Shown here: in pieces, positions 6,450 through 9,275 of the stretch | Position numbering within the stretch: position 1 is the stretch's first letter | How the letters are laid out: each line of letters opens with the position of its first letter | NCBI GenBank assembly: GCA_021160955.1 | Contig: JAGHBM010000003.1 | Location: 1 to 25,301 of the forward strand | Length of the DNA: 25,301 nt | Reading direction: 5' to 3' | Source of the DNA: Candidatus Aenigmatarchaeota archaeon | GTDB taxonomy: Archaea; Aenigmatarchaeota; Aenigmatarchaeia; PWEA01; JAGHBM01 | Position numbers and translations under genes: made by a program | The notes under the pieces: generated by a model | What the model saw: only the letters and a program-made list of their open reading frames with translations | Told to the model about the DNA's origin: nothing | Databases searched by the model: none

Positions 6450-8324
6450 TCATCCAACAAACTTAGGTCTCTTGGATAGGAGTCTTGGCAACGGAAGTGG
6501 TTTGAAGGGATAATCTTTTGTTTCGTTTTTTATCAAATTTGCCAACTCTTCTACAGACATCTCCTTGACTTCACCAGTCTCCCGGAATCTCACCGCGAGT
6601 TTTCCTGACTTTTTCTCCTTTTCACCCACGACGACGATGAACGGTATCCATTCAACTTCGGCGTCTCTTATTTTTCTCTGGACGCTCTCACTTCTATCAT
6701 CCACATCGGCGCGTATGTTCTCTTTTTCAAGTACATCAACGAGTTTCTCGCAATAATCTATGAAAGAATCATTGACGGGACAAAATCTAACTTGCGTGGG
6801 GGAGAGCCACAGTGGAAACGTTGGATTTTTCTTATCTTGAGATTCCATGTAAGCCTTTTCGAGCAATGCGTACATCACCCTTTCAATTGCTCCGGAGGGG
6901 GATAGATGAAGAATCAAGGGGTATTTCTCCTTGTTGTCCTTGTCTGTAAATTTTATATCGTATCTCTTGCTGTTCTCCACATCTATCTGATCTGTGGTCA
7001 AACAAGCGGCTTTGTCCAATGCATCGACAAAATTCCACTCATACTTCAAAACAAAATAGAAGAATTTCTCCTCCCATAGCTCTATCAACGCGGGTCTACC
7101 CCATTTCCTGACCAACTCCTTTACGAAGTCTTTGTTTTCCTCATAGAAATCCTTGACGACTCGAATGGCCAACTCAAGATCATTGGTGAGATTGAGACCA
7201 TCCTGTATTTTTTTGGCAATGTCAAATCTTCTTAGCATCTCTTCCTTTGCCTGATCGATATCTTTACAAATGGCATGGCAGTCGGGCATCGTGAAAGTTC
7301 TCAACCTTCTCAAACCAGCGAGCTCTCCTCTTTGCTCAACTCGAAAACTGTATTTTGTCAATTCGTAAAGGCTCATTGGGAGATTTCTGTAGGATATGTT
7401 TGCATTGTGAAGAATTAAAAATTGACCAAAGCATGCCGCAAACCTCAAAAATACTTTTTTGTTCGGAGTTTTTATGGTGTACTGACGTGCGGGAAACCTG
7501 TTGAGATAATTCTTCAGCGCGGGATGTTCATAATCATACATTATTGGTGTTTCAACTTCCATTGCACCACTTTTTACCATATTGGTTGTGACCCAATCCT
7601 CTATCAGTGATTTTATCAGACGTCCTTTGGGGAAAAACTTAAAGTTTCCAGGATCGCTCGCATTCTCGTAATCTGCTATTTCCATCTTTCTCATAAGTTT
7701 TATGTGTGGTGGCTCTTTATCCACAATTCTGTTCTTGGAAATCTCGTATTTGACCAACTTTTCAAATCTCGGATATTTGGAAAAATCGAATCCAGATATA
7801 TTTCCATCATCAACTTTGAGGAAGTTCTCCTTTCCGTCTGGTTCGAGAACCATCCATTCAGATTTTAGTTTTTTCTCCTTCTGGAGTGCTTCAGGAATCT
7901 TCTCTCCTTCTCCCTTTATTTCTCGACTAAGCTCTGCGAGAGGATGACCTTTAACCGATATTTCAAATGATTTGTACCATCCGAAGGGGGCTTTTTTAAC
8001 GGCATATTCTTTGCTCAACTCATCAACTATTTCATCAAGAACTTTCTTGGCAAACGTAGGAGAACTCGGATTCTTAGTTAGGTGAACATAGGGATATATG
8101 ACTATTTCTTTTGCCTTGACTTGATCGAAGACGTCGACAATTTCTTTAACGACCCCTTTGAGAACCTCTTTGGGATTTTTTTCATCCGATTCTTCTACGG
8201 CTGTGAAGATCACCAACGCTTCTTTGCTTTCCAGTAATTTTTTCTTTATCTCATCGGCATTCTTCACTGCCTTCTTCGCTGGTTCAACTTTTATATAATT
8301 TGAATGAAGACACAATATTTTCAC
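6450..8324 (-). CDS. thrS: Threonine--tRNA ligase, archaeal type with N-terminal DTD-like editing domain
   Basis: N-terminus MKILCLHSNYI (archaeal editing domain); Zn-site motifs FAACFGQF, FTMPDCH and LHLSPSGAIER; YRVEQRGEL-like motif 2 (FRVEQRGELAGLRRLRTF); anticodon-binding domain. Start moved from GTG 8333 to GTG 8324 because GAGGTG at 8336-8331 fits as the SD. Confidence 0.97.
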   Translation of the reverse strand: MKILCLHSNYIKVEPAKKAVKNADEIKKKLLESKEALVIFTAVEESDEKNPKEVLKGVVKEIVDVFDQVKAKEIVIYPYVHLTKNPSSPTFAKKVLDEIVDELSKEYAVKKAPFGWYKSFEISVKGHPLAELSREIKGEGEKIPEALQKEKKLKSEWMVLEPDGKENFLKVDDGNISGFDFSKYPRFEKLVKYEISKNRIVDKEPPHIKLMRKMEIADYENASDPGNFKFFPKGRLIKSLIEDWVTTNMVKSGAMEVETPIMYDYEHPALKNYLNRFPARQYTIKTPNKKVFLRFAACFGQFLILHNANISYRNLPMSLYELTKYSFRVEQRGELAGLRRLRTFTMPDCHAICKDIDQAKEEMLRRFDIAKKIQDGLNLTNDLELAIRVVKDFYEENKDFVKELVRKWGRPALIELWEEKFFYFVLKYEWNFVDALDKAACLTTDQIDVENSKRYDIKFTDKDNKEKYPLILHLSPSGAIERVMYALLEKAYMESQDKKNPTFPLWLSPTQVRFCPVNDSFIDYCEKLVDVLEKENIRADVDDRSESVQRKIRDAEVEWIPFIVVVGEKEKKSGKLAVRFRETGEVKEMSVEELANLIKNETKDYPFKPLPLPRLLSKRPKFVG

Positions 8325-8385
8325 GTGATTCACCTCAAATCTTATCCCCAGGGACCATAAACATCACATAACAATAATTAATAGT

Positions 8386-8393
8386 TTTTTAAA
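8386..8393 (-). promoter_or_regulatory. TATA-like box upstream of thrS
   Basis: TTTAAAAA on the minus strand, about 65 nt upstream of the thrS start. Confidence 0.4.
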
Positions 8394-8399
8394 TAAATT

Positions 8400-8480
8400 T
8401 AAAGTAAAGTAATAAAATAACAAACAGCAAAACAAAAACATAAAACTATTAAAAAAACAAAAGTAACAAAAAAGTTTTGA
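8400..8480. repeat. Low-complexity, strand-asymmetric A-rich tract (imperfect AAAAC/AAAGT units)
   Basis: aaagtaaagtaataaaataacaaacagcaaaacaaaaacataaaac... is mostly A on the + strand with very few G. Confidence 0.6.
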
Positions 8481-8481
8481 T

Positions 8482-8496
8482 AAAAATAGCCCCGTA
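8482..8496 (+). repeat. Direct repeat of the tRNA-Gln 5' end (AAAAATAGCCCCGTA; second copy 8584-8598)
   Basis: Exact 15-nt match spaced 102 nt apart, containing tRNA positions 1-9. Confidence 0.85.
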
Positions 8497-8604
8497 ACCG
8501 TAGGAAACTTTTAAAAAAGTTTCATCAAAACTTAGATGAAGGCAATTTGGCAATGAATAAAAAGACACCAACAAAAAATTATAAAAAATAGCCCCGTAGT
8601 CTAG

Positions 8605-8685
8605 GAGGCCTTTTCTTTCACAAAGAAAAGCACTCGTGGAAAAGAAACTTCCACGAATTTTGTGAAATAGGAAAGGCCTAGGCAA
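8605..8685 (+). other. tRNA intron 1 (81 nt, D-loop position 15/16)
   Basis: Central helix G10-U13 (GUCU) pairs with AGGC 8680-8683. Bulges are AG|G and AA|U. Inner helix AGGCCUUUU 8606-8614 pairs with GAAAGGCCU 8671-8679. The outer helix is absent (relaxed motif). Confidence 0.85.
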
Positions 8686-8708
8686 TGGCCAAGGATGCCG
8701 GGCTTTGG

Positions 8709-8748
8709 TTTTAAAACCAAAGCATTGAGCTTTGCAATGAAAGAAGAA
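8709..8748 (+). other. tRNA intron 2 (40 nt, canonical position 37/38)
   Basis: BHB: C32-U35 (CUUU) pairs with GAAG 8743-8746; bulges GG|U and AA|A; inner UUU/AAA; outer helix is the anticodon stem. Confidence 0.88.
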
Positions 8749-8769
8749 ACCCGGTGACCCAGGTTCGAA

Positions 8770-8940
8770 CCCCTACGGAGGGAACACATTTCCCTCCTTA
8801 TGGACATATCCTCCCTTTGTAATTTTGGGCAAACTGAAAGTTTGCCATGATATTGGTTGGGTCCCATAGTCTGGACCAATGTGGACAACCCAACCAAAAT
8901 TTAAGGGAGGGGTCAGACGGATAGCGGTTCCGCGCGGAGA
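8770..8940 (+). other. tRNA intron 3 (171 nt, T-loop position 59/60)
   Basis: BHB: U54-G57 (UUCG) pairs with CGGA 8935-8938; bulges AA|C and GA|U; outer helix is the T-stem; inner closure is only C8771-G8934. The body holds several strong stems. Confidence 0.85.
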
Positions 8941-8958
8941 TCCTGGCGGGGCTACCAA

Positions 8959-8978
8959 TTTTTATTTCTTGAATTTTA
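8959..8978 (+). terminator. Oligo-T terminator of the tRNA gene
   Basis: TTTTTATTTCTTGAATTTTA immediately follows the CCA. Confidence 0.6.
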
Positions 8979-9275
8979 TCACTTGTCATCATTCGGCTCG
9001 CTCAAAATTTCATAGGTGATTATCTCCGTGTATATCTTTTCTACGGACAGTATGGGAGTGATGATTCCATAGCTCATTCTCGAACCTTCAAACTCTCCCA
9101 TGGGAGCAGATGAAAATTTTTCATCTTTGAAAATAAACACATCAAGAAGCCTACCTTTTGAGAAGAAATAGACGAAAGGTGTGAGGATTCTCACCTCTTC
9201 CCATAGGTTTAATTTATCTTCAATGGTTTTCCAGTCATCGGAGCGAGAAAAATTATCATTAGATATCCTTCCCAA
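8979..9275 (-). CDS. Small hypothetical protein (start uncertain, TTG)
   Basis: 98-aa ORF with plausible composition; overlaps the 9209-9379 ORF in another frame. Confidence 0.45.
   Translation of the reverse strand: MGRISNDNFSRSDDWKTIEDKLNLWEEVRILTPFVYFFSKGRLLDVFIFKDEKFSSAPMGEFEGSRMSYGIITPILSVEKIYTEIITYEILSEPNDDK

Follow-up and report, generated by a model that had tools for sequence, protein, structure and literature searches.

Multiple-intron tRNA genes have been reported in the Thermoproteales, in particular in Pyrobaculum, Thermofilum and Caldivirga (Sugahara 2007/2008, as reviewed in PMC4033280, PMC4390854 and PMC8450103). The load there averages 0.84 intron per gene, with a maximum of 71 introns in 46 genes (PMC8450103), and related introns occupy different tRNA species, a pattern referred to as intron 'transposition' (Fujishima 2010, as cited in PMC4033280). 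Among DPANN archaea, ARMAN-2 (Micrarchaeota) carries an hBH intron at position 59/60 of its pre-tRNA-Cys and two introns in the single T-loop of its tRNA-Pro (53/54 and 59/60), and its missing tRNAs were recovered only by exon searches (PMC3239211). Kaneta et al. 2018 linked the L3 loop of the splicing endonuclease EndA to tRNA gene disruption in DPANN, and the incomplete tRNA sets of new DPANN lineages were taken to point to disrupted tRNA genes still to be identified (PMC5829648). A 2026 study of Asgard archaea reported about two intervening sequences per gene, with T-arm insertions at good bulge-helix-bulge (BHB) motifs; standard annotation misses many of them and a motif-free, homology-based census was needed, and the study found no route by which tRNA introns are gained (bioRxiv 10.64898/2026.10.13.758758). 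Three-intron tRNAs, hBH introns at 59/60, relaxed motifs and related introns across tRNAs are thus already published (PMC4033280, PMC3239211, PMC8450103).

Here we analyse a tRNA-Gln(UUG) gene carried by a 25,301-nt stretch of DNA, hereafter the window (contig JAGHBM010000003.1 of assembly GCA_021160955.1). The host is a small hydrothermal-vent DPANN archaeon whose nearest labelled relatives are Aenigmatarchaeota MAGs. As in the Thermoproteales, up to three BHB or relaxed introns lie in one gene at non-canonical positions that include the D-arm and 59/60, the genes escape ordinary finders, and related introns recur in different tRNA species. As in ARMAN-2, a small DPANN genome carries hBH introns at 59/60 and yields its missing tRNAs only to exon searches, while the Asgard genes share the density of about two introns per gene, the T-arm insertions and the need for a motif-free census. 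Given the observed exon-intron anatomy, BHB geometry, conservation, natural alleles and enzyme genes, we estimate at roughly 85% the probability that this is a functional gene, the only detectable one for tRNA-Gln(UUG), which would be spliced by EndA and RtcB as one member of a lineage-wide interrupted set.

Gene organization and spliced product

The gene comprises four exons separated by introns at positions 15/16, 37/38 and 59/60 (Table 1). The exons are colinear, on one strand and within 368 nt, and the gene is neither split nor permuted. Joined together (15+23+21+17 = 76 nt), they are called by ARAGORN as tRNA-Gln(ttg) over [1,76], with A1-U72, A73 and a genome-encoded CCA. A previous sequence-only reading of the window had placed the exons at these positions and described the cloverleaf as flawless. 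The positions hold, as do the A1-U72 pair and the CCA, but the description is slightly generous, since the D stem contains two G-U pairs. The same reading expected the gene to be missed by standard finders. Indeed, the unspliced gene gives no ARAGORN call, whether introns are allowed or not, and no match to any Rfam model at gathering score.

Table 1. Features of the tRNA-Gln(UUG) locus in window coordinates; the slash within a bulge marks the predicted cut.
Feature	Coordinates	Strand	Description	Support
Degenerate direct repeat	8474..8505	+	Promoter-proximal bases and first 9 nt of exon 1 (ATAAAAATAGCCCCGTA...)	Local alignment
Exon 1	8590..8604	+	tRNA positions 1-15: acceptor 5' strand, U8-A9, D-stem 5' strand GUCU, A14 G15	Motif-free alignment, natural alleles
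Intron 1	8605..8685	+	81 nt at 15/16, relaxed HBh'; bulges AG/G and AA/U	
Exon 2	8686..8708	+	D-loop remainder, D-stem 3' strand, anticodon stem 5' strand, loop C32-G37, anticodon UUG	ARAGORN, motif-free alignment
Intron 2	8709..8748	+	40 nt at canonical 37/38, strict hBHBh'	
Exon 3	8749..8769	+	A38, anticodon stem 3' strand, 4-nt variable loop, T-stem 5' strand, T-loop U54-A59	ARAGORN, motif-free alignment
Intron 3	8770..8940	+	171 nt at 59/60, relaxed hBH; bulges AA/C and GA/U	
Exon 4	8941..8957	+	U60, T-stem 3' strand, acceptor 3' strand, A73, CCA 8955-8957	

Because the exons had first been set via the BHB motif, they were also placed by a spliced alignment (DP) in which an intron is permitted after any position and no BHB knowledge enters. 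The reference set consisted of 101 mature tRNAs from three relatives of the same class with mostly intact tRNA genes. When a relative's intact tRNA-Gln(UUG) serves as the reference, the alignment returns 8590-8604, 8686-8708, 8749-8769 and 8941-8954 exactly. BLAST-seeded exon chaining missed the gene because its exons are short, and the spliced alignment was used in its place.

The introns add up to 81 + 40 + 171 nt, or 292 of the 368 nt (79 %), a load that had been called extreme. This is justified when set against the published tRNA introns of Haloferax (31-103 nt; PMC7714728), and a literature search for a published maximum of archaeal tRNA intron length found none. However, the gene is no outlier in its own genome or family, because tRNA-Ile(UAU) on contig C7 has three introns of 23 + 25 + 228 nt (276 nt, about 78 % of the gene), tRNA-Val(UAC) a single intron of 218 nt, and the tRNA-Ala of a genome of the same family (G002) introns of about 164 + 151 nt, i.e., about 315 nt by an uncurated, DP-level estimate.

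The direct repeat lies about 100 nt upstream of the gene and has a local alignment score of 46, against a maximum of 40 in 300 shuffles; it is probably the relic of a partial duplication, outside the functional tRNA. A 98-aa ORF with a TTG start (8601-8897, minus strand) runs antisense to the tRNA gene, overlapping it, and is almost certainly a spurious prediction. A second 98-aa, TTG-start ORF (8979-9275, minus strand) has neither a Pfam domain nor a paralogue, and the ORFs flanking 18 tRNA loci share no common family; the possibility of a homing endonuclease next to the gene was rejected on these grounds.

Assembly support and natural alleles

The region was compared with public runs, all of them DNA-only metagenomes of hydrothermal vents and marine sediment. 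In two runs, overlapping contigs cover 8439-9104 and agree with the window at every position, and two further studies contain pieces of the region at 90-99 % identity. No single public-run contig spans the whole tRNA-Gln gene, because contigs break at repeats. Misassembly, which the sequence-only reading had considered, is not seen along the tiled interval.

Related strains from the same vents differ in whether a given junction carries an intron, lacks it precisely or carries another in its place. Runs X1 and X2 each hold a contig that reads ...AGCCCCGTAGTCTAG directly before 8686, so that intron 1 is precisely absent (8604 joined to 8686). In X3, 8604 is joined to 8690 via CGGT, an intron-free D-loop variant, and the 171-nt intron 3 is replaced by 32 nt between 8769 and 8940. 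Exon 3 of X1 continues into a different intron that opens with a module-A hairpin, and X4 carries 46 nt in place of 5 nt inside intron 3 (window 8803-8809), a module-sized indel polymorphism. These alleles set the exon boundaries independently, and they show recent intron gain, loss and replacement.

The repetitive nature of the introns raises the question of whether the repeated modules led the assembler to stitch different tRNA loci together, in which case intron 3 or the exon order would be unreal. Intron modules are indeed repeated across the genome, and six tRNA 3' parts adjoin contig ends with their 5' parts missing, so repeated introns do fragment the assembly. The tRNA-Val(CAC) gene appears to be split over two contig ends: its 5' 59 nt lie at C7:1-115 (minus strand) and a matching 3' exon at C65:1-287 (plus strand), which once joined are called by ARAGORN as tRNA-Val(cac), with an implied 59/60 intron of about 256 nt or more, exceeding any in the window. 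A faulty join also seems to exist elsewhere. Contig C33 (1-237, minus strand) links the 5' part of a tRNA-Asn(GUU) (positions 1-59) and a 151-nt intron-3-like element to the 3' exon of tRNA-Gln with its flanking sequence; the final ~75 nt, up to the contig end, are identical to the window. Its acceptor stem is unpaired, and C33 is therefore probably a repeat-induced chimera formed at a tRNA intron; no true tRNA-Asn 3' exon was found in the assembly. Such an artefact at the window's own gene is nevertheless very unlikely, even with no public contig across the whole of it, given that the contigs of two runs agree without a difference over 8439-9104, that two other studies agree at 95-99 %, that G002 repeats the four exons and their order around different intron sequences of its own, and that the exons pair perfectly with one another.

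Conservation of the gene and of its intron positions

A divergent ThrRS / tRNA-Gln(UUG) pair (window 6450-8957) is kept in relatives that include the loci L004, L005 and L008, and the ThrRS neighbour is retained from the intron-free to the three-intron versions of the tRNA gene. The pair thus offers a clean series for dating intron gains. The tRNA-Gln(UUG) of L004, from an Aenigmatarchaeota single-cell genome, is intron-free; several families of the class have the canonical intron only; and the closest ThrRS relatives have introns at 37/38 and 59/60. All three positions are occupied in G002 (introns of 86, 41 and 62 nt) and in family f4, where five genomes have introns of 57-140, 40-44 and 39-49 nt; the introns of G001 measure 65, 44 and 83 nt. 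The 171-nt intron 3 of the window is the longest at its place among the compared orthologues. In relatives with no intron or one, the exons are near-identical. The three positions recur in two families of the order, against no intron or one in distant relatives. These comparisons indicate that the three-intron layout is old and maintained, with drift in the sequences and lengths of its introns.

The tRNA gene set of the host genome

The host assembly (G000) covers 609 kb in 82 contigs and is 86 % complete. On the raw sequence, ARAGORN reports four 'tRNAs' and Rfam four matches above cut-off, all of which are 5' parts or mis-calls of interrupted genes. The census combined the motif-free scan with searches for intron similarity and for the conserved intron terminus, and it recovered at least 27 tRNA loci, none of them uninterrupted. 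Sixteen complete genes were curated and hold 30 introns of 12-228 nt (median 81). About 20 loci have an intron exactly at 59/60, mostly of 135-228 nt in the curated genes, down to 12 nt in tRNA-Leu(CAA). Rfam matches per genome number 1-14 in the window's family and reach 42 elsewhere in the class. Genes with several introns at these hot-spots are found throughout family f1 as well as in G012 and G045. The proposal that the gene might belong to a lineage-wide system of large, structured tRNA introns is thus borne out. An intact tRNA-Gln(UUG) elsewhere, which had been held to decide against the gene, was not found by the genome-wide exon search within the 86 %-complete assembly.

The second glutamine gene, tRNA-Gln(CUG) on contig C80, lacks the canonical intron and carries intron 3 as a 135-nt variant. 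Its 15/16 intron (C80:4605-4685) is identical to that of the window (8605-8685) at 81 of 81 positions. The exons of the two genes differ by A9/G9, by C/U in the D-loop and by a wholly different anticodon stem. This contrast suggests a recent intron transfer, or a gene conversion limited to the intron.

A genome this incomplete could in principle decode Gln from a gene missing from the assembly, and the window's gene would then be a decaying pseudogene invaded by inserts. A 79 % intron content, two relaxed motifs out of three and the degenerate upstream copy of exon 1, a sign of local duplication and decay, would all suit such a history. Yet the exons retain every base that the cloverleaf needs and match the conservation seen in intron-free relatives, none of the three BHBs is damaged, two families keep the intron positions, and no second copy was found. 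Moreover, every other tRNA gene found in the genome is interrupted alike, and these cannot all be dead; we consider decay very improbable. Since all of the at least 27 loci are interrupted, the cell must splice such genes.

Splice-site motifs and precursor folding

At all three junctions, the 4 nt that precede the 5' bulge pair 4/4 with the 4 nt that precede the 3' bulge, with the cut predicted between the second and third bases of each 3-nt bulge, in agreement with the sequence-only reading, which had seen three BHB introns in three arms. By our estimate, a 4-bp helix arises by chance with a probability of ~0.02 per junction, or ~8e-6 for three at fixed positions. The central helix of intron 1 joins 8599-8602 GUCU to 8680-8683 AGGC and is flanked by 0 exon-side pairs and an 11-bp intron-side helix (HBh'). 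In intron 2, a strict hBHBh', the central helix joins 8703-8706 CUUU to 8743-8746 GAAG and is accompanied by the anticodon stem and by UUU/AAA, with flanking helices of 7 and 3 bp. For intron 3, 8764-8767 UUCG pairs with 8935-8938 CGGA, the 5-bp T stem serving as the outer helix, with 1 pair on the other side (hBH). Relaxed forms of the kind seen in introns 1 and 3 are already on record in Crenarchaeota and ARMAN-2 (PMC3239211).

Introns 1 and 3 fold more stably than their shuffles (z = -6.8, as a long stem, and z = -4.3, respectively). A precursor fold that includes the three BHBs and the acceptor, anticodon and T stems has a free energy of -138.8 kcal/mol, 10.3 above the unconstrained minimum (MFE, -149.1). 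The MFE fold does not contain BHB 2, because a perfect 22-nt palindrome (8702-8723), which spans G31-G37 and the start of intron 2 and is present in G007 too, competes with it. Forcing BHB 2 costs about 3 kcal/mol relative to a fold that imposes the stems only. A nested intron inside intron 3 was also considered and rejected: one strict nested BHB is seen against 0.65 expected, and 86 of 200 shuffles reach one.

For intron 1, alternative BHB registers of 77 and 79 nt overlap the 81-nt one and also form 4/4 helices. The 81-nt register alone restores the D-loop common to all references (UAGUGGCCAAG) and matches the natural intron-less alleles. That the gene is functional but cut instead at 8607-8683 is very unlikely: this 77-nt register has an all-Watson-Crick CUAG/CUAG helix with 2 + 9 flanking pairs and an 80-nt product that ARAGORN still accepts, with a 13-nt D-loop, but independent tRNA-Gln references put the junction at 8604/8686, with the 9-nt D-loop AGUGGCCAA, the natural intron-less alleles read ...GTCTAG/TGGCC..., and the MFE fold uses the GUCU/AGGC helix.

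Splicing enzymes

The assembly contains one EndA gene, on contig C11, which encodes about 189 aa with PF01974 and PF02778 in one ORF, and an RtcB gene on contig C24. No heterotetrameric (alpha-beta)2 EndA with the crenarchaeal N-terminal loop is found in G000, where the EndA gene is single. Over its full length it matches M. jannaschii alpha4 (1a79) best. Located in its C-terminal domain, between the catalytic Tyr and His, is a Lys-rich insert (KLKKGPKSKK) that aligns without gaps to the catalytic subunit of N. equitans and corresponds to the L3 loop. The single-unit EndA with a Tyr-His insert resembles the DPANN alpha4-type enzymes of Kaneta et al. 2018, a study that contains neither this lineage nor its introns (PMC5829648).

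EndA architecture varies within the class. In the window's family, one N+C unit makes up the enzyme; in family f4 (G013, G016-G021), two units are fused in an ORF of 364-413 aa; and some other families, including those of G024, G033 and G039, have a pair of adjacent genes. The 15-residue Tyr-His loop is common to all architectures examined. Single-unit, alpha4-like enzymes classically need strict motifs. Here, a one-unit EndA must process relaxed D-arm and T-arm motifs on precursors five times the size of a tRNA, and the loop, which may relax specificity (PMC5829648), may permit these introns. The loop was also considered as the cause of intron accumulation, a view that we reject: all 34 genomes examined in the class have a loop of 15-16 residues, irrespective of an Rfam tRNA count that goes from 1 to 42. 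As intron-poor relatives have it too, the loop alone does not explain the intron load, and something else must set it.

Proposed splicing pathway

Altogether, these findings lead to a model in which transcription of the gene would yield a precursor 368 nt long or longer. Its acceptor, anticodon and T stems would form, and each intron would fold on itself and present a BHB site. At 15/16, the D-stem 5' strand would pair with the 3' end of the intron (HBh'), so that the D stem could form only once intron 1 has been removed. The site at 37/38 would be a canonical hBHBh', and the one at 59/60 an hBH composed of the T stem and of U54-G57 paired to the last intron bases. The single-unit EndA would then cut after the second base of each 3-nt bulge, and RtcB would join the four exons and probably circularise the introns. 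We infer that transcription, cleavage and ligation take place in this manner in vivo. The large 59/60 introns are related and modular and, in this model, were recently exchanged between tRNA genes.

A modular family of T-loop introns

The 59/60 introns are mosaics of recurring hairpins, ending in one of a few alternative 3' blocks. At least 12 other tRNA genes share the hairpin modules of intron 3 in their own 59/60 introns. One is a pyrimidine/purine hairpin (CCUUUCUU...AAGAAAGG), present in intron 1 too; another is a GCAAAC-loop-GUUUGC hairpin; a third, GGUUGRGU-loop-ACYCAACC, shows compensatory A:U to G:C variants. These variants were read at alignment level, as genome-wide counting of hairpin-module covariation by regular expressions proved too noisy. 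Every large 59/60 intron terminates in YGAGRR or CGGAGA, of which the first four bases pair with U54-R57. In 13 T-loop introns, all 52 central-helix positions are paired and the bulges are of 3 nt, and a C at intron base -6 is seen only with a G at base 57.

Sixteen of the 30 introns match an intron of another amino-acid type over at least 30 nt at 80 % identity or more, against none in five shuffles, and all large 59/60 introns share sequence with introns of other amino-acid types. Similar introns thus lie at the same position in different isotypes of one genome, as is characteristic of a 'transposed' intron family. The modules are confined to tRNA loci and contig ends, with the exception of one hairpin array on contig C43. 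This array (C43:1885-2093) is made of related short hairpins (CTTTACTCGGCGTAAAG-like); it is intron-like and has no tRNA exons around it.

Two other identities were considered for these introns and rejected. As hosts of C/D-box sRNAs like the one in Haloferax tRNA-Trp, they would carry a C box (RUGAUGA) and a D box (CUGA), and RTGATGA is absent from all 16 introns of 80 nt or more, where CTGA is sporadic. Comparison with group I/II introns and Rfam families gives no match at gathering score, only chance-level ones (19 bits or less at E up to 10).

It is tempting to propose, although we would put the odds slightly against it, that the large 59/60 introns are a currently active family, whose members copy or recombine between tRNA genes via the near-universal T-arm sequence GGUUCRAAUCC and for which a 6-nt 3' tail (YGAGRR or CGGAGA) is enough to form an hBH site that can be cut. 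If this is true, the lineage is a natural system in which to watch the arrival of archaeal tRNA introns at the population level. Modular introns at one site, an 81-nt intron identical in two paralogues and differences between strains make gene-to-gene copying directly testable.

Comparison with described systems

With 16 of its 30 introns in cross-type families, the genome displays a pattern that resembles the Thermoproteales and not the Asgard archaea, among which cross-type intron families are almost absent. The reported values for cross-type similarity are 28 % in the Thermoproteales and almost none in Asgard, a rough comparison as the criteria differ (bioRxiv 10.64898/2026.10.13.758758). 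Several aspects nonetheless set the lineage apart from the Thermoproteales. It belongs to DPANN and not to the Crenarchaeota; its EndA is a single unit with a loop in the C-terminal domain, whereas theirs is an (alpha-beta)2 enzyme with the crenarchaeal loop; 30 introns in 16 curated genes, with no gene uninterrupted, exceed both their average and their maximum load; and its 59/60 introns are much larger (135-228 nt and more) and built of shuffled hairpin modules. ARMAN-2, for its part, has a three-unit epsilon2 EndA with a loop of its own, unlike the one-unit protein found here, and no large modular intron family is described there (PMC3239211). What is new here is how large and modular the T-loop introns are and how nearly universal in the genome, together with the lack of any uninterrupted tRNA gene, the single-unit EndA and the strain-level turnover; a literature search found no description of this lineage's intron system.

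The consequences for annotation are immediate, since standard tools find 1-14 of about 45 tRNAs in the lineage, whose genomes consequently look tRNA-poor, and since assemblies break at the repeated introns. The phenomenon extends to class II tRNAs, for which a 2015 review knew of no translocatable intron (PMC4390854). The tRNA-Leu(CAA) gene, located at C42:71-232 in the host assembly and at 1293-1612 of locus L197 in G002 (contig C23, minus strand of the locus), has three introns, among which the G002 copy includes a T-loop intron of 183 nt.
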